A stretch of 20,000 nucleotides of DNA from Yuukianura sp. NJ FZ-2021 (lineage: Eukaryota), in assembly GCA_046563655.1 (NCBI GenBank), contig CM102287.1, forward strand, positions 10,718,300 through 10,738,299. The letters run 5' to 3'. The notes beneath the pieces are model-generated. The model did not search any database. It was not told where the DNA came from and saw only the letters and a program-made list of their open reading frames with translations. The position numbers and the translations under genes are program-made. Below are positions 2,072 to 20,000 of the stretch, in pieces (the first letter of the stretch is position 1; each line of letters opens with the position of its first letter).

Positions 2072-4045
2072 TCAGTAGACGTAGATTTGCTTCAGTTGCT
2101 GCCGAGTTTCCACGGGCAGAGTGGATAAATTGAAGATGTTCGTTTCGGGCTGTGCTGCCGCTCGTCGGTGTCGTTTTCGGAATGAAAGGATGTGCAGAAT
2201 GCGCCTGCGCAGACGTCGGAGACTCTTGAGTGAAACTGATCTTTTGAGCTTCTTCGGTGGGGCTGGTGGGTCGCTGGAGAGTTCTGCCTGGATCTTGGCC
2301 TGATCCACCACATCCTGGAAAGTTTCTTCAAGTATTGATGCAGTAGAGGGGTAGTTGTAGTAGGATTCGATGGCCAAGAGGTGGGGCAGACTCATGGAGT
2401 GGGACTCAGAGAGCAGAAGAAGGTGGGGCATGGAGACAGAGTGACCCGTGACCTTTGACATGCTCAGACTCTCTTCGCGCCACCATGGCGTGGGGCTGGG
2501 GGTGGGCAGGGAACTGAAGGAGTCCTCTGCCATGGCTCCACTCTCGCAAATCCTGGATTCTGATGCCGTATTTTTCATTCTTCTGGAGAAACAAAGCAAA
2601 CAATTAGTTTCCACTTTCACAATCAATTAACTTCCAAGGTCAATTGTTGGGAGTAGCGTCACTACTGGAGGTTAGCCTTTCTGATTAACTAGTCAAGAGC
2701 TTTGACCATGAATATTCAATTTCCAAACCACACAAAGTTACTTCCCGCTTTTCAATTTTTTCCAAGTCAAAGGTCACTTGCTCTAAAGTTCCGCTTTTTA
2801 AAAATATATTTCACTCAAACCGAAAATCCAAAAACTAAAACTTAAAATCCACCCCGAAAAATAATTTTTCTGATTCTAGGAACTGTCCACCCCCAAACCC
2901 ATAAATTTTCCGAATGACGTTAAATTCGTTGAACGTGGGAAAAAAGATTTGGACTTTGGATGTTGAATTTGCGTAAGTTGGAAGTGATCTGAAGAGAGAT
3001 TTGGAAATATTTTTTATACCTGAATAGAATTGCGAGTGCTGCGATGATGGAGATGGCTAGAAGTAGAGGGAGGAGAGTGGCAAGGAGGATGAGCAAGTGG
3101 TCCACTTGTTCCTCGAGCGTCGCTTCCCCTGGAATGGGACATGAAAGTGTCAATTAGTAATTAGCTCCTCATTCTAGACTGGATCCAGTCTATTCTCAAC
3201 AATTCCATTTGACTCTACATAATATTCCATAGGAAGGAGGGGAAGGGAGACAATAGAATAAGTTCCTTTTGTTGTTCAAGGCCTTCGGAACTGACCGTGC
3301 CTTGAACTACACAAATCCAACTCCAACCAGATCAACTCCTTCGTCATCCACTTCTCATCTTCAGATGACCTTTGACCTCCTCCAGTCAAAAGTTATCTTA
3401 ATGCATGTTAATTGAAGAGAGCAGTGGCAAGTGGCGTTTGAGTCTCATGGCCATCCGTGGACCAAACAATGCCTGGATTGAGGAAAGCAAGGGACACATT
3501 TAGGAAGTGCAGAACAATGCCCAAGCCAGGAATGGAACACCAATTAAAAATGACAATTACTGACGGCACTACCACTCTAACTGCGCATCACACTAACGCC
3601 TAATACAAGCCCCTTCCAAAAATAAACTACAAAAACAGAAGGAAAGCTTTAAAATTGTTTGAGGGCTCCAAGGGTCATTCCTCCTTTAGAAAAAAAAACA
3701 CAAAGTCCTCCTCAAAAAATGAACTTTTTCAACGCCATATCCAAAAAATTATCAATCAAAAACCACTTTTCTACTATGAGAAATCCAAGAAAAAGAACGA
3801 CTGACGCTGATTCATTGCCTTTGACTTTGAGCATGACCCCTCCAGCCCTGCCACTTCAACTAATGAATGTAATTGTAATTAAATGTAATTTAATTAATTG
3901 CTATAAACCTACCGTAGTCGTTTGGAGGTATGAAGAAGACGGGAGTGTTGTTGTGATGCTGTTGCTGGGCAGAGTGGAAGTGAGGGCGCAGTTGATGGAT
4001 GTCAGTCGTGTGTTCTGGACCAGGAGGCTGGTGGATGGGTGCCAT
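2072..4045 (-). CDS. Uncharacterised ~250-aa single-pass membrane protein. Exons 4045-3913, 3128-3020, 2582-2072
   Basis: Spliced ORF MAPIHQPPGPEH...TPVFFIPPNDY/GEATLEEQVDHLLILLATLLPLLLAISIIAALAILFR/RMKNTASES...LPVETRQQLKQIYVY*. GT-AG introns of phase 1 and 2 join in frame (133+109+511=753 nt). CTAAT-type branch points precede both acceptors. In-frame TGA upstream of the ATG. One ~24-aa hydrophobic helix followed by RR. Confidence 0.75.
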
Positions 4046-5860: not shown

Positions 5861-6043
5861 TCTCAAAACACTTCAACTACTTCACACTAACCGAAAACTA
5901 GCCTAATCCAAACCTAAAGTCAGTTTCCTTTAAAGCAGCGAGGAATTTGAAACGGAAATCTACTTGGCCAACTTGGAAGTTCTCTTTGACCTACTTTGAC
6001 CTACAAGAGAGCAATCCGTCGACAGTTTAGTTTAAACACTGTC

Positions 6044-6334
6044 ATGGAGACGCTCTCTTTAAGGCAAAAGTTAGCAACCAGCGTTCCAGTCCAAGCATTC
6101 GGAATTCCAGAAGTGGAGACAAAGTGGTCATATTTTTCAGAAGATGCTGACGACGCTTGTAGCTCCATCTGGAACGGGTGAGTTTGAGACCAAGAGCAGA
6201 AAGTAATTAGTCAAATACTGCTAATTTGTGAGGAGAGTCATTCCATGATGAGTAATTTCCAATGCCACTTCTAATTGACGCTTGACACGCAGAGTCTCCT
6301 TTTCATCAGGACCACAAATGCTCAAAAAATGTAG
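6044..6334 (+). CDS. Candidate spliced 52-aa small ORF (exons 6044-6177, 6310-6334)
   Basis: gtcATGG start; perfect GTGAGT donor at 6178; CTAATTGAC branch point and TCTCCTTTTCATCAG acceptor ending 6309. Peptide METLSLRQKLATSVPVQAFGIPEVETKWSYFSEDADDACSSIWNGTTNAQKM*. AATAAA at 7302-7307 followed by T-rich sequence. No recognisable domain. Confidence 0.4.
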
Positions 6335-7798: not shown

Positions 7799-7807
7799 CC
7801 CATTGTG
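7799..7807 (+). repeat. Left target-site duplication CCCATTGTG
   Basis: Identical to 12000-12008. An alternative reading (7-bp TSD with GGGG/CCCC termini) fits Merlin less well. Confidence 0.88.
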
Positions 7808-8513
7808 GGGTGGATTGGACCAACTTGTAAGCAGTCGAAAATTTTCTAAGTTTTTTAGCCAAAATTTTCGAAAAAATTTTTTTTCGTTTTTTTCACATTT
7901 CATGACGTTTCAAACGTTTTTGGAACGTTTGGAGCAAAAAAAATTTTTTGACCCCAAGGGTCCCCCTTCCCTTTTTTTTTCAAAATTTTGACTCGGAAAT
8001 TTTCTAAGTACAGAACTCAAGTGGACACCTCTGACAACCTCAAAAATGACCCCTATGAAAGTTGTTCAGAATAACGAGGGGAGCATTTTTTGTTCTGTGA
8101 CATATGACCCTGTGACCTTCCGTTGAGGTCATAGGTCAACTTGAAAGTCAAACCCCTGACAACCCAAAAAATGACCTCTACAAAAGTTATTGGGCTTGAT
8201 GAGAGGAGCATTTTTTGTCCTGTGACATATGACCTTGTGACCTTCCGTTGAGGTCATAGGTCAACTTGAAAGTCAAACCCCTGACAACCCAAACAATGAC
8301 CTCTACAAAAGTTATTGGGCTTGATGAGAGGAGCATTTTTTGTCCTGTGACATATGACCTTGTGACCTTCCGTTGAGGTCATAGGTCAACTTGAAAGTCA
8401 AACCCCTGACAACCCAAAAAATGACCTCTACAAAAGTTATTGGGCTTGATGAGAGGAGCATTTTTTGTCCTGTGACATATGACCTTGCGACCTTCCGTTG
8501 AGGTCAAAGGTCA
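7808..8513 (+). repeat. Left TIR (~705 bp): ~220-bp unique terminus plus 125-bp tandem units (TGTGACATATG at 8096, 8221, 8346, 8471)
   Basis: Reverse complement of 11163-11999. The only difference I noticed in the terminal part is a 1-nt C-run indel (~7962 vs ~11841). Period exactly 125. Confidence 0.92.
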
Positions 8514-8529
8514 TCTTAGGTTAAGTTAG

Positions 8530-8792
8530 GTGAAAAATTATTTTTCCTAACTTTTCATGAAACGAAAAGTTAGTGTGGTCCCGTTGACCTCAGTGATCCC
8601 CGTGACCCCCAAAATGACCTCCAAAGGTAAAAAAAAAACATTTTTGTACTTTTGCATGAAAATGACTTTGGGAGTAGTCCTGATGATCTCAGTGACCCCC
8701 GTGACCTCAAAAATGACTTTTAAAGGTCAAAAAACTATTTTGCTACTTTTGAACGAGAAAAACTTTGGGAGTGATTGCGATGACCTCAATGA
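8530..8792 (+). repeat. Degenerate ~98-bp subterminal tandem repeat (~2.7 copies), left end only
   Basis: TGACCTCAGTGA 8585, TGATCTCAGTGA 8684, TGACCTCAATGA 8781; the shared TACTTTTG...ACTTTGGGAGT blocks recur. Confidence 0.7.
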
Positions 8793-8809
8793 TTTTCATA
8801 TTAAGTTAT

Positions 8810-8873
8810 ATAGGGTTTAGCCGGACATGCCGTTTCCAGATCACACCACGTGGAGGTACCCTATTTGTGATCC
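8810..8873 (-). ncRNA. HDV-like (nested double pseudoknot) self-cleaving ribozyme, 64 nt, short P4
   Basis: Minus strand: P1 GGAUCAC(8873-67)/GUGAUCU(8844-38) with G1-U wobble; J1/2 AA; P2 AUAGGGU(8864-58)/ACCCUAU(8816-10); P3 ACC/GGU; L3 UCCACGU; P1.1 CC/GG(8837-36); P4 CGG-CAUGU-CCG; J4/2 GCUAA with predicted catalytic C at 8820. Predicted cut between 8874 and 8873. Confidence 0.88.
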
Positions 8874-9018
8874 AAAAATGTTGTTGCGTACTCACCCTCA
8901 CCCCTTGTACGCCCCCGGCGGCCATTGTGAGGGCCCCTTTTACCAGTTTAAAGCAACGTTAAATTTATTAACACTGGTACGCCGGGTAGTTTTAAAACGG
9001 TTAGCTCATTAAAAACTA
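8874..9018 (-). ncRNA. Putative structured RNA (three-way junction + loop-loop pseudoknot) ending in UUUUU at the ribozyme cut site
   Basis: Helices CCCGGCG/CGCCGGG (8986-80/8920-14), UACCAGU/ACUGGUA (8979-73/8947-41), GUUAA/UUAAC, GCC/GGC around loop CUCACAAU, GCGUAC/GUACGC (8912-07/8891-86). CCCUCAC (8933-27) is complementary to GUGAGGG (8901-8895). GC-richer island in AT-rich surroundings. Family unknown to me. Confidence 0.55.
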
Positions 9019-9438
9019 ATCATGAAATCAATTATTATTCAAAACAAGTTCAATGCATTTTATTTCATTAACCATGTGAAATTGAGCACAAAAAATAAAT
9101 TCATTTGATTTTTTTAAAATCCATCTCAATTTTTTTTTTGATTTTTTTTTGTTATTTTTAATTTTTATAAACTTGCTTTAAAAAATTAAATATTTTTTTT
9201 TCTAATTTTCGTTAAATTTTTTGTAATTTTTTCTTCAGTTTTTTAAATACAATTTTCCTAATCCTTTTTAAATTAAAAAAGAATTTTTTTTTAATTGGAA
9301 TTGATTTTTGACTGCAAATTTCCAAAACAAAATTAATTGAAAAGCACGCTTTTTTTTCTGGGTCGCTTCCAGATGAAAAGCAAAAGCATACGGAATACTT
9401 CAGCTTTCATATAATTAATTGGCATAAAAGTTAAATAA

Positions 9439-10557
9439 TTATGGGACACAATCACGACAAGTACAATGTGGCGTTTTGATTCCTATTTCTCTTTTAGGGT
9501 CAACATCGTATCCTGGGTACATGCGTCGCAAGTCCCGAAGAAAGTGGAGTAACTTTCTGCCAAAGTCCCTTTTGTGGCTGGTATATAATTGGTTCAGGGT
9601 GTTTCTGCGATACAAAAACTCTCCTATGTAGTTAGGGACCATTTCAGCAGAACATTTTCGTAAGAAGTTGTACTTAAGGTCTTTCCACACACTTTCGATG
9701 TTGTTGGTGTGTACTTTAATTAAAGTAACTCTCCTGAATCGGCGAAAACCACGCATCCTTGGGTAGACCCAAAATCGAGCCACTCTGCCAAGTCTGGGGT
9801 AACGCCCTCTCACTACCCCTGGAACAGGGTTTACAAAATGCAGAGAGTGGTTAATTGCAAAATGGGTTCGGAATCCCAAGCGACGACACGTACGGTAGCT
9901 ACGAAGCTCATCGGTCATGATTATTGACCCCTGTGCGATATGCCTTTGCATAAAACGAAATAGTGTACCGCGTCTCTTGTTCTTAATTTGTACAACAAAT
10001 TTCTTTTTGGTTAGCCTGCTTACCCCTCCAAATACCCAAAGCGCTCGTTTTAACGCGCGTCCGCGATGATATTTTGGGGTAAACAGGTGGGACTCGTCGC
10101 ACTCCACAATGTCACCAGGCCCTCCAATTTGTTGCTCATCGTGGGCATGAGCAACTCGGCACACTTCTCGGCAAAATGAGTAAAAGTCCACGGCAGTTTT
10201 AAAGTCCACGTCGCATTGTCCCGCAGCTTGCCTCACTCCAATCTTAAAATACCAACACACAATCAAATTGAATGTTTTTAGAAATGGAAGTTTGACTTTC
10301 TCAAAAAATGTATCAATTAAAGGATTACACATTGGTTGTGCGCATGTCCTTTTCACACAGCTCCACCAGAACCCCAGTTTACAGTCAGGCCGCATTCGCT
10401 GTGTCATTTCAAAATAGCAAGTTGGGCAGGTGGGTGCAAAGTTGGGAATAAGTCCCAAATCATAGGCTGCCTCAATAGCAGTTTCTTCATTTTGCATAAA
10501 GTTTCCATAAGTAAAAATTGTAAAATGATCCGAATTCAATAAATTTTCAAAAGCCAT
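9439..10557 (-). CDS. Merlin/IS1595-family DDE transposase, ~372 aa, intact
   Basis: caaaATGg start at 10557. Zn-ribbon CPTC...CVKRTC; IGGPGDIVECDES (D1); KYHRGR...WVFGG; GSIIMTDELRSY (D2); INHS..FVNP; HTNNIESVW (E); YIGEFLYRR. No stops or frameshifts. Confidence 0.93.
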   Translation of the reverse strand: MAFENLLNSDHFTIFTYGNFMQNEETAIEAAYDLGLIPNFAPTCPTCYFEMTQRMRPDCKLGFWWSCVKRTCAQPMCNPLIDTFFEKVKLPFLKTFNLIVCWYFKIGVRQAAGQCDVDFKTAVDFYSFCREVCRVAHAHDEQQIGGPGDIVECDESHLFTPKYHRGRALKRALWVFGGVSRLTKKKFVVQIKNKRRGTLFRFMQRHIAQGSIIMTDELRSYRTCRRLGFRTHFAINHSLHFVNPVPGVVRGRYPRLGRVARFWVYPRMRGFRRFRRVTLIKVHTNNIESVWKDLKYNFLRKCSAEMVPNYIGEFLYRRNTLNQLYTSHKRDFGRKLLHFLRDLRRMYPGYDVDPKREIGIKTPHCTCRDCVP

Positions 10558-10814
10558 TTTGCTACGCCAATCGAGCACGTAGTTTAATTTTAAACTTTTA
10601 AAAAATTCAAGATTTAGTACCAATTATTAATTTGTAACAAACAAAGAAAGAGAAAAATTATAATATTAATATTGGTACTAATACTTTTAGTTTTTGTATA
10701 GCGCAGGTAGGAAAGGAAAGAAACACCAAACGGATTTTGCACGGGATGCACCCCATCCGCAGAGGTGGACTGTTCACCAACATCATTATGGCCGTTGCAG
10801 TCTCTCGGCATTTA

Positions 10815-10869
10815 CTGAATTATAATTATAATTTGAACTGTTACAGTTCAAATTATAATTATAATTCAG
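10815..10869. repeat. Perfect 55-bp AT-rich palindrome (27-bp arms, 1-nt centre)
   Basis: CTGAATTATAATTATAATTTGAACTGT-T-ACAGTTCAAATTATAATTATAATTCAG. Confidence 0.95.
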
Positions 10870-11162
10870 ATTTAGCACGTCTTGGGATCTGAGGCGCCAG
10901 TTTCCTCAGATCCGGACGATTTTGGCCACCTTATACAGCAAAGCTGTATAAGGCGATGTTAGCCCCGTAATTCAGGTGGCGAGTCTGAACCTTGGTGTTT
11001 CAATCCTTTTCAAAAAAAAATGAGCAGCGCTTCCCTCCCATGTAAGCATTTTTAAGTTTCGGACCAGAACCCTAGGCACGCTCAGACTTAGGCCATTTCG
11101 GATTAACCGAGCGGGTCTGGTCCCCTCCCTTCGGAGTATGTGAGATTTTGCGATTTGAAGTA

Positions 11163-11999
11163 CAAGTTGACCTATGACCTCAACGAAAGGTCACAAGGTC
11201 ATATATCACAGGAGAAAAAATGCTCCTCTCATCAAGCCCAATAACTTTTGTAGAGGTCATTTTTTGGGTTGTCAGGGGTTTGACTTTCAAGTTGACCTAT
11301 GACCTCAACGGAAGGTCGCAAGGTCATATGTCACAGGACAAAAAATGCTCCTCTCATCAAGCCCAATAACTTTTGTAGAGGTCATTTTTTGGGTTGTCAG
11401 GGGTTTGACTTTCAAGTTGACCTATGACCTCAACGGAAGGTCACAAGGTCATATGTCACAGGACAAAAAATGCTCCTCTCATCAAGCCCAATAACTTTTG
11501 TAGAGGTCATTTTTTTGGTTGTCGGGGGTTTGACTTTCAAGTTGACCTATGACCTCAACGGAAGGTCACAGGGTCATATGTCACAGGACAAAAAGTGATC
11601 CTCTCATCGAGCCCAACAACTTTTGTAGAGGTCATTTTTTTGGTTGTCAGGGGTTTGACTTTCAAGTTGACCTATGACCTCAACGGAAGGTCACAGGGTC
11701 ATATGTCACAGAACAAAAAATGCTCCCCTCGTTATTCTGAACAACTTTCATAGGGGTCATTTTTGAGGTTGTCAGAGGTGTCCACTTGAGTTCTGTACTT
11801 AGAAAATTTCCGAGTCAAAATTTTGAAAAAAAAAGGGAAGGGGGGACCCTTGGGGTCAAAAAATTTTTTTTGCTCCAAACGTTCCAAAAACGTTTGAAAC
11901 GTCATGAAATGTGAAAAAAACGAAAAAAAATTTTTTCGAAAATTTTGGCTAAAAAACTTAGAAAATTTTCGACTGCTTACAAGTTGGTCCAATCCACCC
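11163..11999 (-). repeat. Right TIR (~837 bp) with five 125-bp units (CAAGTTGACC at 11163, 11288, 11413, 11538, 11663)
   Basis: Inverted copy of the left TIR with one additional repeat unit. Confidence 0.92.
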
Positions 12000-13474
12000 C
12001 CCATTGTGTGATGCCACGGCGCATTGGTTTTCTGCTAGAGTACTCGTTGATGGAAGTGGCTGGACGTCGAGGAGACAGCGGAGGACCCAGGAAGCCCTTC
12101 ATGCTGAGGACTGGACGCAGGGCCAAGGGCCCACTCACTTCGTCTGGACAGAAAGTGGGGAAGTGCATGGCTGGAGTGGGGGGTCTTGGGTGACTCTTGT
12201 CTCTGGTAGTTGACCCACCAATGGATTTCCCCACAGTTGTCAGTGAGCGTAAGTCTTCTTGACTTGCATGTCGTTTAGGATCTGCACAGTAAGGAACCAG
12301 TTTACGACGGATTCGGGTTGAACGATTTCGAGTGTCATCGGCTGAGGAAGAAGACAGTGGACGATGTTCTCCGAGAGTCGTCAGTTGATGTCTGGCTAGC
12401 ACTGCTGACAAGATTCCGTTGCTTTTTCCATCTAGAAATTAATCAAGTGAAAATTTAATTTCCAAGAGTTTGTCTAATTAATCATACGTGTTGCTTCCAA
12501 CAGGAGCTGTTCCTTGAGTCCGGAATAAATCGCAGGATGTCGTTCGATTGCCGCTTCCAGAGTGTTGACTAATCCCAGGATTTCCTTCTCCAAAATGGCC
12601 GACTTCTCAGTTTCGTTTTCCGACGTTGGAGCTGCTGACGATGTAGCGGAAAGTCTCGACTGGAAAAATCAAGTTGCAACTGAAGGTAATTATTCAATTG
12701 ATCTTTTAATGTTAAGATTTCAATTACTCCTAGGATTTCTGTGCGATGAGCAGAGTTGATTTGATTGATGAGATTCCGTATCAATTTCTCCTGAGATCCA
12801 ATGACTGCCTTCAACAAATGTTCTTGTCCTTGCAGTTTTCTGGCTGGACAGTGTTGACGGGCTCTTGCATCACGACCTTTCAATTCCAGGAAAGTTTGAC
12901 CTCGACATCTGAGCATCAAAAAGGTAAGACAAGAATCCTTATTTTTAGTATTTAAGTTGTTCGTCACTGAAACAGTGAAAGTGACCTGTTGAGGTCAATG
13001 AGTTCTCCACGACAGTCAGTTATGCTTTCGTAACCACGAGCGTTGAGAGTGTAAAGCACATCTCGGATGAAGTCTTTCATCTCTCCATGTTCATCTCTCA
13101 GATTTTTGAGCTGTTCGTCTAACATAGTCGACATTCGCTTGGCTGCTGCGAGTTGCTCGTCAATTCGCTCGGTACCTTGGCCTTGTTCGGTTCTAGTTTT
13201 AGCCAAGAACGTTTGTGGACTTTTGCCTGAGTCCTCGCCATTGACTTGGACCTACATTGTGGCCAAAGGTCACAAGTCAAGAGGTCACAAAAGCCGTTTT
13301 TTTTTTAAAATAGTTTACCTTTTCTGAGAGTCGTTTCGTTTTAGTCTTTTTGGTTGTTGGTCTGGAGGACGCGATTTTGCCTCCTTGTGCCTGAATTTGT
13401 CGGAGTGACATTGGTGGCAACTCAATTTCAGTGTCTCCATGATCCACCTCCGTCAGGGTGGGATTTGTCGTCAT
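11977..13474 (-). CDS. Uncharacterised ~409-aa protein with predicted coiled-coil segments; C-terminus altered by the Merlin insertion. Exons 13474-13319, 13251-12986, 12908-12728, 12659-12488, 12431-11977
   Basis: Five exons join in phase through short GT-AG introns (1230 nt). Heptad-like stretch ERIDEQLAAAKRMSTMLDEQLKNLRDEHGEMKDFIRDVL. The exon 2 donor could instead be the GTGACG site ~12967 (same phase). Removing the transposon restores ...RRGITQWAF* with TGA at 7793-7791. Confidence 0.75.
12000..12008 (+). repeat. Right target-site duplication CCCATTGTG
   Basis: Identical to 7799-7807. Confidence 0.88.
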
Positions 13475-14081: not shown

Positions 14082-14482
14082 CATTCAGAGACAAATTTTT
14101 TAAAAAGTATATTATTCTCTGTTAAGGCATAAATACGCATTCAGAGACAAATTTTTTAAAAAGTTTATTATTCTCTGTTAAGGCATAAATACGCATTCAG
14201 ATACAAATTTTTTAAAAAGTTTATTATTCTCTGTTAAGGCATAAATACGCATTCAGAGAAAAATTTTTTAAAAAGTTTATTATTCTCTGTTAAGGCATAA
14301 ATACGCATTCAGAGAAAATTTTTTTAAAAAGTTTATTATTCTCTGTTAAGGCATAAATACGCATTCAGAGAAAATTTTTTTAAAAAGTTTATTATTCTCT
14401 GTTAAGGCATAAATACGCATTCAGAGACAAATTTTTTAAAAAGTTTATTATTCTCTGTTAAGGCATAAATACGCATTCAGAG
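14082..14482 (+). repeat. 56-bp minisatellite, 7 copies + 9 nt
   Basis: Unit CATTCAGAGACAAATTTTTTAAAAAGTTTATTATTCTCTGTTAAGGCATAAATACG starting at 14082, 14138, 14194, 14250, 14306, 14362, 14418, with a partial copy at 14474. Few substitutions; ends exactly at the LTR boundary. Confidence 0.95.
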
Positions 14483-15479: not shown

Positions 15480-18400
15480 TTACGGATCTGGAGATAGAAG
15501 TGGACAGATTTTGACGATTGGTCGTTTGAATGTATGTAGTTTTGGCTTCTTGGTCTTCTCATCGAATGTAGTGTACTTCACTTCAACAGTGCGGACAAGA
15601 TCATCGTTTCCTGGGAATACTGCAGTGACTCTGGCCATCTTCCATTTGAGTGGTGGATGATTGTCATCTTTCAGCAGCACTAATTCTCCGATTTTGACAT
15701 TTTCAGTAGGTGAATTCCACTTCCTCCGTTCTTGAAGAGTATGAACGTACTCAGTACTCCATTTCTTCCAAAAGTGTTCCAAGATGAACTGGACATGCTG
15801 CCACCGAGACAAACGATTCTCCTTGAGGTGGAGTAGACTTGGTTCCGGTATGGCAGTGAGAGGACGACCGATTAGGAAATGACCAGGAGTGAGTACTTGA
15901 AAATCATCCGGATCATCTGACATGGCATAGAGTGGTCTGGAGTTGAGAACTGATTCGATCATGGCTAGGATGGTGTAGAACTCTTCCAGTGTCAGACATT
16001 GAGTTCCCACGGTACGTTTAAGATGAAACTTGGTAGATTTGACACAAGCTTCCCAGAGTCCACCCATGTGTGGAGCGTTTGGTGGGTTCAGCCTCCACTC
16101 TATCCCTTGGTTGCCTAAAAAATCGCTAATTTCATCATTAGACTTTTCCAATAGACTAACCCATTCCGACATTTCGTTTTTGGCTCCGACGAAGTTACTT
16201 CCACAGTCGGAGTAGATTGCAGTCGGTAATCCTCGTCGTGCTACGAACCGCTTCAAAGTGCCAATGAAAGTCTCAGTGTCGAGGCCCGTTACCGGTTCAA
16301 TGTGAACCGCTTTGGTACTAAAACAAATGAAAACACAAAAGTACACATCAAATTGTTTTTTACCTCTACCCTTGGTTTCTGATGCTTTCATTGGTCCTCC
16401 AAAGTCAAGTCCAGTGTGACTAAATGGTGGTGATGGGGTTACTCGTGGTTTTGGTAGATTTCCCATCAGCTGACTGTAAGTTTTGGCACGGAGCCTTTTG
16501 CACTTTATGCATTGATGGAGCTGCTGACGAACAGTGACACGGGCTCGAATGATCCAAAATTGCTGTCGTAGGCTACTCCACAGTAGTTGATAACTGGCGT
16601 GATGCAGTTTGATGTGGTAATTCCAAATGATCAGTTTGGTCAAATGGTGATTTCCAAACAGAATCATCTGGTGCTTCTTCTCCTCTGGTTCTTGTGAGTT
16701 TTTGAGTCTTCCACCGACTCTTAGGATACCGTCCTTGTCCAAAAATGGGCTGAGATAGGATAATTGACTGCGATTGGATAATTCTCTTCCGACTTTCAGT
16801 TTCTTGATCTCCTTGTCGTAACACTCTCGTTGAGCCTCCCGGATGGAGATTATGAATCCATGGTGGATTTCAGTAGCTGAAAGTGGTCCAGTTAAACGAT
16901 TTCCGGTTTTTGAATTCCTACAATTGCTAATAAATCGTAAGACATACGCCATGGCTCTTTTAAGCCGAATGACATTAGAAAACCTTTCAAACATGGATGA
17001 ATTGATTAAACCCAAATTGACCATTACTTTTTCACCTTTTAATTCCAAGTCAGGCTCACTTACTTCCCCCGACTCAAAATTAGGTAATTTTACTGACTCA
17101 CATAGAAATGACGGTCCTTTGAACCAGAGATTTGAGTTGATTAGTTCCTCTGCTGGAATTCCTCGTGTCCCAAGATCAGCAGGGTTGATTTTACCAGGAA
17201 TGAATCTCCATGACTCAGCAGGAAGTACATCCTGAATTTCTGAAATTCGATTGGCGACGAATGTTTTGAACTTACGAGACCGGTTTCGTAGCCAATGTAG
17301 AACAATTTCACTGTCGCTCCAGCAAGTGATGGGACATTGTATTTTCAGAGCTTCAGTGACTTGAGTCATCAATCGTGTCAGGAGAAGGGCTCCACAGAGT
17401 TCCAACCGAGGAATTGAGATTTGTTTGATTGGAGCTACCTTCGTCTTGGCAGCGATGATGTTTGTGTAGATTTCGTTTCCACGAATCGAGCGGGCGTAGA
17501 CAACTGCACAGTAAGCAGATTCGGATCCATCCGAGAATCCGTGGAGCTCCACGAACTCAGCAGTGCCTAAAAACAGGAACCTGGGGATTCTAACATTCTC
17601 AATTAGTTTTACCCCTTGTTCAAAGTCGATCCATGGTTGAAGTAAGGCTCGAGGTATCTCTTGGTCCCACGTTAGGATGTGACTCTTTCCATCGGTTTCA
17701 ACTGGTGTCCAAAGTTTCTGGAAGTAGAGTTTAATTGACACAGTGAACGGAGATAACATACCGAGTGGGTCGAAGACACGGCTCATGGACGAAAGCACAG
17801 AGCGTTTAGTAGCTTTTTCTTCGGCTACTGGTGTGTATCCAGAAAAATGAAAGACGTCATCGGTTGAATTCCAACAAACACCTAAAGCTCGGACATGATT
17901 AGAATCGGATTTTACATTAGGATTTTTACCCCGTAGATTTTCTGGAATGAAGTTGAGTAATTCTGAGTCGTTTGAGTCCCACTGCCGGATTTCAATACTG
18001 GATGATTCCAGTAACTTGGAGAGCTCATTGTAGATTTGAACTCCCTCGGCCGTAGACTTTGCATTTCCAAGGAGATCATCAACGTAGAATCTTTCCCTAA
18101 GGACCTCCGCCCCCTTTGGAAATGCCTGAGAATTGGAATTAGCAATTTCATTCAAACACCTTACCGCAAGGAATGGCGCTGAACTAGTGCCGTAAGTGAC
18201 CGTTTTGAGACGGTACTCTTTGACTGGTTCTGACTCTGACGTTCTCCAGAAAATCCTTTGATAGTCCTGATGAGATTTTGAAATTCCAAACTGACGGTAC
18301 ATCTTTGTAATGTCCGCCTTAAGCGCAATCGGGTCTGACCTAAAATTGATTAAGTGCGCAAAAATGTCTTTTTGCACCGTTGGACCTACCAATTGACATT

Positions 18401-20000
18401 CGTTGAACGTAATTCCGGTTGTTGTCTTTGCTGAGCCATCGAAGACAACACGAAGTTTGGTAGTACTGGAAGTCTCCTTCAGTACAAAGTGATGAGGAAG
18501 ATAATTAGTTTTCCCAATTTTCTCACCACACTCGGAGTCAGGAATTGGTTCCATGTGACCCAGTTCTTCGTATTGCTCCATGAAGCGATGGTACTCGGGT
18601 TTCAGATCCGGAAATTGCTTTAGTCGCTTCTCGAGATTATAGAATCTCCGTAATGCCATGGTTCTAGACCCACCTAAAATTTCAATCTTGGGATTAAATG
18701 GAAAACTTACTTGGAGTCTACCATCTTCTCCTTTAGTGTGAGTCTGAACAAAATGTGTTTCAGCATCATCTTCGTCTTTGGTGAGGTGAGGACGATTTGG
18801 TACATCCTCAATTTCCCAAAACTTTGGAATTGGATCCTCGGTTACAATTTGGATGTGATGAGATGAGACAGACCTAGAAGGACAGTTAATTGGACCAGAT
18901 ACAACCCACCCGAATTTTGTTTCCTCAGCAATTGGTTGAGTAGGCGGTCCTTCCGATCTCTTCCCCGTTTTAAGGTAAGCGACAAACTCAGCACCCATCA
19001 GAATGTCAATGTCTCCTGGCTCCAGAAAATGGGGGTCAGCTAATCGCAGATTTGTGATGTGACTCCATTCCATTTTCTCACATTTGAATGAAGGAATTGT
19101 ACCTGTAATCTTGTTAAGCACCAAAGCATTGACATTTACATGAAAATTAGTTACCCGAGAATTGACAATGAAATTTACCTCACCAAGTGCTTTACCGACA
19201 CTTGCACCTGACACTCCAGTAATTGAAACATTTGACTTAGTTTTGATTAAACCAAGTCGTTTGACACAATCATTTGTGATCATACTTGATTCAGAGCCCT
19301 GGTCAAGCAGAACACGACATTGAACCAACTCACCATCAGAGTCCATGACGTCAACCACTGCCGTAGAGAGTAGGACTCTAGCAGACGATGATTGAAGTGA
19401 ATTGGTTGTTGACCCTTGAGATGAAGTTGATGGAGCAGTAGATTTGTTGTCATCTGATTTTTCAAAATGAAGCGTGGTGTGGTGACGGCCCTTACATTTT
19501 AGGCACCGGAACTTTCCCTTGCAGTCCTTGCCCCAATGACCTGATTTTAAACAGTTTATGCACAATGACTTACTTCCCACGAATTTTGAACGTTCCTCCG
19601 TTGACAATTTCAGATAATCCCCACATTTGTAGAGACCATGATCTGTGGACTGGCACATTGGGCATTTTCGCAGAGGTTGAGTTGGTCTGGAAGATTCGAT
19701 AGGCAATGATGACACCGATTGATTTGATTCCGATACGGTAGGCTTGGATGCCACGTTTGCCTTCTTCTCTGCTGGTTTTCCACCCTCTGAATTTGATTTG
19801 GTTGTAGTGGTGGTAGACGCAAGCAGACCTCTAACGTAATCTTCCAAAAATTCCATGACTTCTGCCAATTTTGGTACATTGGTCCCCTTGAGAGACTTTG
19901 CCCAGTCCCTTTTGCATTCTGGAGGGAGACGTTCCACTAAGTGGAAAACTAAAATCGAATCCCAAGAATTCACAGGCTCCTTTAGATTTGATAAGGATCT
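15480..20000 (-). CDS. BEL/Pao Gag-Pol polyprotein, >1500 aa, 5'-truncated by the window, intact
   Basis: Three Zn knuckles (CPMCQSTDHGLYKC, CINCLKSGHWGKDC, CLKCKGRHHTTLH); protease LLDQGSE; RT KLRVVFDGS...DITKMYRQ...YVDD; RNase H FSDGS...WSDS...NPAD; integrase HIKLHH...CIKC, GLDFGGP, YSDCGSNF, GGLWEACVK; C-terminal FWKKWSTEY...W domain. Frame open to nt 20000. Confidence 0.97.
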   Translation of the reverse strand, partial: RSLSNLKEPVNSWDSILVFHLVERLPPECKRDWAKSLKGTNVPKLAEVMEFLEDYVRGLLASTTTTTKSNSEGGKPAEKKANVASKPTVSESNQSVSSLPIESSRPTQPLRKCPMCQSTDHGLYKCGDYLKLSTEERSKFVGSKSLCINCLKSGHWGKDCKGKFRCLKCKGRHHTTLHFEKSDDNKSTAPSTSSQGSTTNSLQSSSARVLLSTAVVDVMDSDGELVQCRVLLDQGSESSMITNDCVKRLGLIKTKSNVSITGVSGASVGKALGEVNFIVNSRVTNFHVNVNALVLNKITGTIPSFKCEKMEWSHITNLRLADPHFLEPGDIDILMGAEFVAYLKTGKRSEGPPTQPIAEETKFGWVVSGPINCPSRSVSSHHIQIVTEDPIPKFWEIEDVPNRPHLTKDEDDAETHFVQTHTKGEDGRLQVSFPFNPKIEILGGSRTMALRRFYNLEKRLKQFPDLKPEYHRFMEQYEELGHMEPIPDSECGEKIGKTNYLPHHFVLKETSSTTKLRVVFDGSAKTTTGITFNECQLVGPTVQKDIFAHLINFRSDPIALKADITKMYRQFGISKSHQDYQRIFWRTSESEPVKEYRLKTVTYGTSSAPFLAVRCLNEIANSNSQAFPKGAEVLRERFYVDDLLGNAKSTAEGVQIYNELSKLLESSSIEIRQWDSNDSELLNFIPENLRGKNPNVKSDSNHVRALGVCWNSTDDVFHFSGYTPVAEEKATKRSVLSSMSRVFDPLGMLSPFTVSIKLYFQKLWTPVETDGKSHILTWDQEIPRALLQPWIDFEQGVKLIENVRIPRFLFLGTAEFVELHGFSDGSESAYCAVVYARSIRGNEIYTNIIAAKTKVAPIKQISIPRLELCGALLLTRLMTQVTEALKIQCPITCWSDSEIVLHWLRNRSRKFKTFVANRISEIQDVLPAESWRFIPGKINPADLGTRGIPAEELINSNLWFKGPSFLCESVKLPNFESGEVSEPDLELKGEKVMVNLGLINSSMFERFSNVIRLKRAMAYVLRFISNCRNSKTGNRLTGPLSATEIHHGFIISIREAQRECYDKEIKKLKVGRELSNRSQLSYLSPFLDKDGILRVGGRLKNSQEPEEKKHQMILFGNHHLTKLIIWNYHIKLHHASYQLLWSSLRQQFWIIRARVTVRQQLHQCIKCKRLRAKTYSQLMGNLPKPRVTPSPPFSHTGLDFGGPMKASETKGRGKKQFDVYFCVFICFSTKAVHIEPVTGLDTETFIGTLKRFVARRGLPTAIYSDCGSNFVGAKNEMSEWVSLLEKSNDEISDFLGNQGIEWRLNPPNAPHMGGLWEACVKSTKFHLKRTVGTQCLTLEEFYTILAMIESVLNSRPLYAMSDDPDDFQVLTPGHFLIGRPLTAIPEPSLLHLKENRLSRWQHVQFILEHFWKKWSTEYVHTLQERRKWNSPTENVKIGELVLLKDDNHPPLKWKMARVTAVFPGNDDLVRTVEVKYTTFDEKTKKPKLHTFKRPIVKICPLLSPDP

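Follow-up and report, generated by a model that had tools for sequence, protein, structure and literature searches.

Introduction

Hepatitis delta virus (HDV)-like self-cleaving ribozymes are typical of the 5′ ends of retrotransposons that lack long terminal repeats (non-LTR retrotransposons), according to the sections drawn on of PMC6765202. In the corresponding portions of PMC6765202, PMC4035085 and PMC3414825, the eukaryotic mobile elements described as settings for such ribozymes are retrotransposons, and the ribozymes of R2 and L1Tc are linked to release from co-transcripts and to an action resembling that of an internal ribosome entry site (IRES). Here we describe a predicted HDV-like ribozyme of 64 nt, at positions 8810–8873 on the minus strand, that lies inside a Merlin cut-and-paste DNA transposon of Yuukianura sp. 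NJ FZ-2021. The analysed DNA, referred to as the window, is the whole 20,000-nucleotide stretch from contig CM102287.1 of assembly GCA_046563655.1. Complete folds of the same kind occur on the transposase strand of three diverged Merlin relatives from metagenome contigs, denoted L003, L006 and L007. Judged from sequence and predicted structure, the 64-nt stretch is very probably a real, element-borne and cleavage-competent ribozyme, and the novelty lies in its setting, since the ribozyme class is an established one but both the type of host element and the position relative to the gene are new for it. An earlier note, made from the letters of the window and a list of its open reading frames, had proposed this ribozyme and had known of no report in Merlin elements. 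That remark agrees with full-text searches of a collection of open-access papers (supplements and the original genome-wide surveys of HDV-like ribozymes lay outside its scope). Among the papers listed there, which dealt with R2 or retroelements, were general or were unrelated, no link between an HDV-like ribozyme and a DNA transposon or transposase was found; in the Merlin survey PMC8101967, the word ribozyme has 0 occurrences.

The closest parallels are the ribozymes of the non-LTR retrotransposons R2, RTE, Baggins and L1Tc, with which the Merlin ribozymes share the double-pseudoknot fold, carriage by a mobile element and location on the strand of the open reading frame (ORF). The P3–L3–P3′ core in the window is one base off the drz-Agam-1 consensus, which together with that of F. 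prausnitzii resembles it most, and the layout of L003, with the ribozyme followed by the ORF, is that of the retrotransposons. The logic is likely common as well, namely the freeing of element RNA from unwanted flanking RNA. Unlike R2, RTE, Baggins and L1Tc, however, the Merlin host is a class II cut-and-paste element that has neither an RNA intermediate nor a reverse transcriptase. Moreover, the Merlin ribozyme lies 3′ of the ORF in three of four cases, so that the message would be the upstream product, and it is internal, adjoining the arrays of the terminal inverted repeats (TIRs), rather than placed at a terminus.

Similarities extend to the minimal HDV-like ribozymes and theta ribozymes known from bacteria and phages (RF02682 type; Kienbeck et al. 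2024, PMC10879173, in the part considered here): the window and L007 each find their best Rfam match in RF02682, and P4 is reduced to a short helix or almost to nothing, above all in L003 and L006. In contrast to these, the host is eukaryotic, no tRNA adjoins the ribozyme, and the score stays below the RF02682 gathering threshold. A tRNA-linked theta ribozyme was rejected for the window, where ARAGORN predicted 0 tRNA genes. The mammalian CPEB3 intronic ribozyme (RF00622) is likewise a cellular HDV-like fold within an RNA polymerase II transcript, and L003 gives a weak match to this family (19.3 bits); whereas CPEB3 occupies a single conserved intronic host locus, the Merlin ribozymes are borne by mobile elements of several divergent lineages. 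With regard to the host, the element resembles the Merlin/IS1595 superfamily as described in part of PMC8101967 in its DDE_Tnp_IS1595 domain, GG termini, 9-bp target-site duplication (TSD) and internal tandem repeats. Its TIRs of ~700–850 bp are longer than the 24–462 bp given there.

Results and discussion

Predicted fold of the ribozyme

HDV-like folds are characterized by a G at position +1 held in a G–U wobble that closes P1 at the cleavage site. Further hallmarks are a catalytic C that opens J4/2 and is followed by purines (CNRA), and a two-pair P1.1 formed between L3 and the bases that follow P1′. The parts identified in the window are as follows.

8810..8873, minus strand: HDV-like self-cleaving ribozyme (predicted), 64 nt; from descriptor parse, pairing check and end-to-end RF02682 alignment
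8873-8867/8844-8838, minus strand: P1, 7 bp, with closing wobble G8873-U8838
8866-8865, minus strand: J1/2, two unpaired A
8864-8858/8816-8810, minus strand: P2, 7 bp, all Watson–Crick
8857-8855/8847-8845, minus strand: P3, 3 bp
8854-8848, minus strand: L3, 7 nt, UCCACGU
8853-8852/8837-8836, minus strand: P1.1, 2 pairs, C8853-G8836 and C8852-G8837
8832-8830/8824-8822, minus strand: P4, 3 bp with a 5-nt loop
8820-8817, minus strand: J4/2, CUAA, with C8820 as the putative catalytic base
between U8874 and G8873, minus strand: predicted cut, from the position of the fold

The +1 wobble is present as G8873–U8838. CUAA at 8820–8817 provides the CNRA motif, and C8853 and C8852 face G8836 and G8837 as P1.1; these assignments are by position, the catalytic role being predicted. 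All residues of L3, P1.1 and J4/2 are canonical. The descriptor finds the parts in the nested double-pseudoknot order P1, P2, P3, L3, P3′, P1′, P1.1, P4, J4/2, P2′, and the pairing check found every named pair of the helices to be standard. With both strands scanned, 8873→8810 was the sole descriptor match in the window. Every element of the HDV/CPEB3 fold claimed in the earlier note was thus recovered on the minus strand, at the positions given there, by reading of the sequence, descriptor and pairing check alike. As far as a sequence-based assignment goes, 8810–8873 is a member of the HDV-like fold class and is assigned to no single Rfam family. It is filed under the fold class only, because no family threshold is reached.

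Host element

The ribozyme is situated in an element with the following features.

7808..11999, minus strand: complete Merlin transposon, 4192 bp, with matching termini, TSD and transposase
9439..10557, minus strand: transposase gene of the Merlin/IS1595 type (DDE), intact, with ATG at 10557 and 372 aa; PF12762
7799..7807, no strand: left target-site duplication, 9 bp, CCCATTGTG
12000..12008, no strand: right target-site duplication, 9 bp, CCCATTGTG
7808..8517, no strand: left TIR, holding a 125-nt tandem array at 8027-8517 (3.9 units)
11154..11999, no strand: right TIR, holding a 125-nt tandem array at 11163-11779 (4.9 units)
8533..8792, no strand: ~3 diverged 97-99-nt repeats; read on the ribozyme strand, the series opens 17 nt 3′ of the ribozyme and continues into the left array
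9064-9059 and 8969-8964, minus strand: two AATAAA between stop codon and ribozyme, possible poly(A) signals (pattern scan)
9295 and 9162, minus strand: two ATTAAA between stop codon and ribozyme (pattern scan)

The transposase frame stays open upstream of the ATG as far as 10623. PF12762 (DDE_Tnp_IS1595) matches the protein with an E-value of 5.3e-14 (52.9 bits against a cut-off of 27), and its D, D and E catalytic motifs align with those of homologues. The termini of the element are identical at 60 of 60 positions and both start with GGG; the inverted repeats 7801–8517 and 11154–12006 are 96–97% complementary. In the part of PMC8101967 considered, the hallmarks of Merlin elements are GG termini, a TSD of 8–9 bp, an IS1595-type DDE domain and internal tandem repeats. 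Given the PF12762 transposase, the GG termini and the 9-bp TSD found here, the host of the ribozyme is, on its sequence features, a Merlin cut-and-paste transposon. From the transposase stop codon to the start of the ribozyme there are 565 nt, and from the end of the ribozyme to the inner end of the 125-nt array at 8517 there are 292 nt, in keeping with the distances of ~565 and ~300 nt put forward in the earlier note.

Two further observations concern the non-coding parts of the element. By eye, a short GAGGTCATTTT...GTCA-type motif is common to the 97–99-nt repeats (8533–8792) and the 125-nt units (8027–8517), and the former look like diverged subterminal repeats. The 5′ leader of the transposase holds a perfect palindrome with 27-nt arms at 10815–10869 (z −10.4).

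Since HDV-like ribozymes are typical of non-LTR retrotransposon 5′ ends (PMC6765202, in part), the motif might stem from a fragment of a non-LTR retrotransposon or short interspersed nuclear element (SINE) that landed in this Merlin copy; the BEL/Pao retroelement at 15480–19973 indicates that retroelements are active in the genome. This origin is very improbable on the present evidence. Between 8810 and the end of the element there is no ORF of at least 100 aa, and the ribozyme is followed by repeats only, which are the element's own series. No reverse transcriptase lies 3′ of the ribozyme, the sole one in the window belonging to the separate BEL/Pao element. Three relatives with transposases of 31–46% identity carry an internal ribozyme on the same strand, and in L003 it precedes the transposase ORF. 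The earlier note had itself raised an unrelated nested fragment that is absent from other copies as the outcome that would overturn its proposal. The lack of a reverse transcriptase, the ORF that follows the ribozyme in L003 and the similar placement in relatives point the other way.

Contigs from three DNA runs of one sample, which is possibly the source of the assembly and is thus not independent of it, provide additional information on the site. Among the sample contigs listed, 8541–8857 and 8614–8986 are covered without any difference, which speaks weakly against a nested fragment as far as these runs allow. In one variant contig, 36 other letters stand between 8675 and 8809; this contig is shorter by a repeat unit, yet on the side of the ribozyme at least 44 nt are retained. 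Copies of the transposase that are 10–20% diverged are also found among the sample contigs listed.

Statistical support for the fold

Infernal alone leaves the identity of the ribozyme unsettled. RF02682 (HDV-F-prausnitzii) aligns end to end with exactly 8810–8873 at 26.0 bits, with an E-value of 0.0032 for the 181 nt searched and of 0.36 over the whole window and all 4227 families. At the same site, RF01787 (drz-Agam-1) reaches 17.8 bits against a gathering score of 37 (E 0.2). P2 is unscored by the RF02682 model and P1 by the RF01787 model. The Infernal check proposed in the earlier note consequently turned out well for the extent of the match, which is exact, and less well for its score, which is below the gathering threshold of 44.

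The rate at which such a fold arises by chance was estimated on a first-order Markov sequence of window composition, the rates of the parts being multiplied under the assumption of independence. The core of P3 and L3 appeared 976 times per 38 Mb. Of these 976 cores, 80 had P1.1, 79 had CNRA and after it a P2 in which six or more of the seven pairs form, and one had a P2 with seven Watson–Crick pairs; all features jointly occurred 0 times in the 38 Mb. A 7-bp P1, with at most one G–U, G at +1 and any of 14 placements, was counted at 2632 of 3,999,800 positions. The product of these rates gives an expectation of ~4.5e-6 full ribozymes per 20-kb window, and of ~5.7e-8 at the observed quality, a figure that rests on one single count.

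Folding energy is less distinctive. The pseudoknot-free minimum free energy (MFE) of the 64 nt is no better than that of shuffles (z −0.71), which is expected because the RNA is pseudoknotted and pseudoknots lie outside the MFE model. The helices P1, P3 and P4 together amount to −10.9 kcal/mol and P2 alone to −5.6 kcal/mol; the MFE of −17.3 kcal/mol, compared with the nested parts, shows that an alternative fold competes. The G+C-rich 130 nt upstream of the cut have no special fold (z −0.22).

Recurrence in Merlin relatives

Of 1812 candidates, 198 qualified at E ≤ 1e-5 as homologues of the window transposase. The best of them is 58% identical; the best named one, from Folsomia candida, is 55% identical over 64% of the query. 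An alignment of 17 homologues (A1) was used to scan metagenome contigs, and 102 pattern matches led to 15 Merlin loci with a total of 30,672 nt. In the same alignment, columns ~305–345 hold an extra segment that is conserved in this Merlin clade, between the second D and the E of the catalytic triad, with a P-x-L-G motif; the window transposase has a further short insertion within this region.

Complete HDV-like folds were found with a relaxed descriptor in three loci (L003 168–223, L006 2506–2565 and L007 2215–2283), all on the transposase strand; the remaining 12 of the 15 gave no match to this descriptor. In the Rfam E-value scan, L007 2215–2284 (+) scored 32.9 bits with RF02682 (gathering 44, E 0.014) and 28.2 bits with RF00094 (gathering 50), while L003 157–220 (+) scored 19.3 bits with RF00622 (gathering 35, E 0.91). 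As a control, the 15 loci were shuffled with preservation of dinucleotides to give 2079 sets. The relaxed descriptor yielded 0.30 matches per shuffled set, and a strict version, with a 7-bp P1 and a P2 of at least 7 bp, yielded 4 matches summed over the 2079 sets against 3 observed in the real loci. A covariance model built from the four ribozymes (window, L003, L006 and L007) scores its own members at 59–66 bits (window 64.9), as follows from its construction. Applied with filters off, it brought to light no additional ribozyme of lower score, whether in the remaining 12 loci or in the rest of the window, the next best score being 9.2 bits. A scan of genome contigs gave 3 distant prokaryotic IS1595 loci, where the model reached at most 13.2 bits, and a scan of viral contigs found no relative.

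The four transposases are 31–46% identical in pairwise comparison and all match PF12762. When the element was compared with the 15 loci by blastn, similarity was confined to the coding region and to a small number of very short segments in the 5′ leader and TIR, with no DNA similarity around the ribozymes. The ribozymes were therefore found by structure and not by carried-over sequence.

The layouts of the three relatives are as follows, in the coordinates of each locus.

L007: intact ORF 433-1530; ribozyme 2215-2283; 160-nt tandem arrays 1-480 and 2900-3205
L006: ribozyme 2506-2565, ~250 nt past the transposase match; inverted repeats 790-913 and 3782-3905
L003: two exact 75-nt repeats 1-150; ribozyme 168-223; strong hairpin 224-288; ATG 442

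In L007 the ribozyme starts 684 nt past the stop codon and ~620 nt before the right array, 305 nt of which (2900–3205) are 100% complementary to the left end (1–413). The arrays lie ~1200 nt from the ribozyme in L006 and ~600 nt in L007. In L003 the ribozyme is 5′ of the gene, and the transposase ORF begins 219 nt after it. The ribozyme is accordingly 3′ of the transposase gene in three of the four cases (window, L006, L007) and 5′ in one; common to all four is a sense-strand ribozyme between the ORF and a repeat array.

Some further features of these loci were noted. Directly after its right inverted repeat, L006 has at 3904–4016, the contig end, an inverted and 98% identical copy of its own transposase part 1630–1742. 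This suggests that another copy, oriented the opposite way and internally deleted, follows there or that the assembly was joined at this point, and it leaves the right boundary of L006 unclear. Hairpins are found at 224–288 of L003, directly 3′ of the ribozyme (z −7.7), at 2089–2156 of L007, 58 nt 5′ of the ribozyme (z −5.4), and as a stable non-coding hairpin region at 423–498 of L001, which is 77% identical to the window leader 10815–10740. The Merlin hairpins may be transposase binding sites, sources of small RNAs or folding helpers.

Covariation among the four ribozymes

In an alignment of the four ribozymes (A3), P1, P3 and P1.1 pair in 48 of 48 cells, a completeness to which the choice of the sequences contributes (see below), and both sides change in 8 of the 12 pairs. 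None of 500 shuffles matched the observed percentage of pairing or the covariation score, and one of 500 matched the number of pairs with double changes. Sliding the partners by 1–3 columns reduced the pairing to 25–48% (maximum 47.9%). The four P2 helices are each perfect, with 7–8 bp and no shared sequence. L3 and P1.1 are conserved throughout, as are the first bases of J4/2; P1.1 consists of C–G in all four, and the +1 pair is G–U in three and A–U in one (L006). The independent support for the ribozymes is their excess over shuffles together with the shared strand and place.

These data bear on the alternative of a chance look-alike, or of an inactive relic without cleavage. Scores below every Rfam gathering threshold, the whole-window E of 0.36, the z of −0.71 and the competing fold of −17.3 kcal/mol are all in line with such an origin. 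It is nevertheless improbable: the chance expectation does not exceed ~4.5e-6 per window, relatives provide three more cases as compared to 4 strict matches in the 2079 shuffled sets, compensatory changes are seen in P1, P2 and P3, and the residues of L3, P1.1 and J4/2 are canonical. In silico, the fold, its place in a complete element and its recurrence with compensatory changes are established. With a PF12762 transposase, a 9-bp TSD and GG termini in the window and counterparts in 3 of 15 relatives, the proposal of an HDV-like ribozyme on the transposase strand of a Merlin element is supported at this level.

Possible role of the ribozyme

By analogy with HDV-like chemistry, RNA transcribed from the transposase strand past the gene would cut itself 5′ of G8873. 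The upstream product would comprise the transposase ORF and a 565-nt trailer with a 2′,3′-cyclic phosphate at U8874, and the downstream product, with a 5′-OH end, would comprise the ribozyme and, after it, the 99-nt repeats together with the left 125-nt array. The message of L003 would lose the array on its 5′ side through the cut, and the messages of the other three would lose it on their 3′ side; in both layouts the cut would uncouple the transposase message from inverted-repeat array RNA. Sense transcripts that enter from outside or read through would then no longer fold into ~700 bp of intramolecular double-stranded RNA (dsRNA), and the cut message would be without sequence shared with array-derived small RNAs from array-bearing copies. 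A precedent for the underlying threat is Tc1, for which PMC3878927, in the part considered, names as a trigger of RNA interference (RNAi) the dsRNA that arises when transcripts reading through TIR transposons fold back. The roles suggested in the earlier note, definition of the 3′ end and/or blocking of transcripts that span both TIRs, fit a ribozyme that always lies between ORF and array, on either side.

Retention of the ribozyme for uncoupling from the arrays, and thereby for escape from RNA silencing, is attributed tentatively, as a proposal that may well hold but for which the balance is close to even at best. The full statement, a genuine HDV-like ribozyme of 64 nt, built into a clade of Merlin transposons, that uncouples the transposase message from the arrays, is placed slightly short of an even chance. 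Somewhat more doubtful is the specific version in which a whole clade of eukaryotic Merlin transposons kept the ribozyme as an anti-silencing device, the cut on either side of the gene keeping both fold-back dsRNA and array small RNAs off the transposase message.

Several observations weigh against this interpretation. A ribozyme on the sense strand cannot stop the fold-back of antisense read-through transcripts, and after the cut the two arms may still anneal in trans. The four poly(A)-like hexamers precede the ribozyme, so that most messages may end before reaching it. The distribution is patchy: a 3′ ribozyme is found in two of the six loci with at least 400 nt downstream (L004, L006, L007, L013, L014, L015) and a 5′ ribozyme in one of the 11 with at least 400 nt upstream, most of the 15 Merlin contigs being too short for both sides of the gene to be judged. 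The closest relative, L004 (69% identity), has no ribozyme in a 650-nt trailer that reaches its 21-nt repeat array. L006 has A instead of G at +1 and a transposase frame broken near the 3′ end, and this copy may therefore be decaying. As for the evidence of the fold itself, no Rfam ribozyme family reached its gathering score in the window or in any relative in the Rfam scans, and three of the four sequences in A3 were chosen by a descriptor that demands pairing, so that their 100% pairing is partly by construction.

The same fold, strand and place would be expected if a real, element-borne ribozyme were kept for ordinary making of transcript ends and not for silencing escape. In the 3′ position it would act as a fail-safe 3′ end or insulator against running into the array and the host flank. 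In the 5′ position of L003, where the order of repeats, ribozyme and, 219 nt later, ORF copies the retrotransposon layout, it would release the message from host co-transcripts and perhaps permit translation without a cap, in line with proposals made for R2 and L1Tc, for which co-transcript release and IRES-like action are described in the portions used of PMC6765202, PMC4035085 and PMC3414825. Conversely, a cut that leaves no poly(A) tail normally lowers the stability and export of a message, and poly(A)-like hexamers are already present upstream. In addition, the 5′ and 3′ positions do not obviously serve one role, unless this is simply to cut next to the array. We regard end-making as a serious but rather unlikely explanation.

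Attention may also be turned to the downstream product, as the ribozyme could set the 5′ end of a non-coding RNA, made up of ribozyme and subterminal repeats, that acts on transposition, for example as a decoy or guide of the transposase, whose DNA binding sites would presumably lie within the repeats. The window repeats of 99 nt, which are separated from the ribozyme by 17 nt and lead on to the 125-nt array, and the strong hairpins that adjoin the ribozymes of L003 and L007 are compatible with such an RNA. In L003, however, the downstream product would be the transposase message and not repeats, and in L006 and L007 the arrays are ~1200 and ~600 nt away. To our knowledge, no RNA partner is known for IS1595/Merlin transposases, which also counts against this function, and we consider it improbable. 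Its extension to the main proposal, in which the cut-off RNA of ribozyme and repeats regulates or guides the transposase, is more improbable still.

Should the uncoupling of the transposase message from the arrays hold true as an anti-silencing device, a ribozyme would for the first time be assigned to a DNA transposon, and the ways of countering RNAi would gain a new kind. Its retention across four Merlin lineages that diverged deeply would mean that catalytic RNA serves class II transposons, too, in shaping their transcripts. The idea that read-through fold-back elicits RNAi, as given in the part considered of PMC3878927, would become directly testable. Beyond this, DNA transposons of this type would offer a new genomic context for ribozyme searches and possibly a natural insulator for transposon vectors.

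Other features of the window

The BEL/Pao LTR retrotransposon frame, which is separate from the Merlin element, spans 15480–19973 on the minus strand and encodes 1497 aa with Peptidase_A17 and DUF5641 domains; RVT_1 and an integrase zinc-binding domain are weaker and below the Pfam cut-offs. Between the Merlin and BEL/Pao elements lies a tandem repeat at 14082–14482, with a unit of 56 nt in 7.2 copies that are 97% matching. A mir-46/mir-47/mir-281 precursor at 5991–6072 (+), 1.7 kb from the transposon, scores 65.2 bits (gathering 44.7, E 8.6e-12), identifies the DNA as that of an invertebrate and is the only gathering-level Rfam match in the window.

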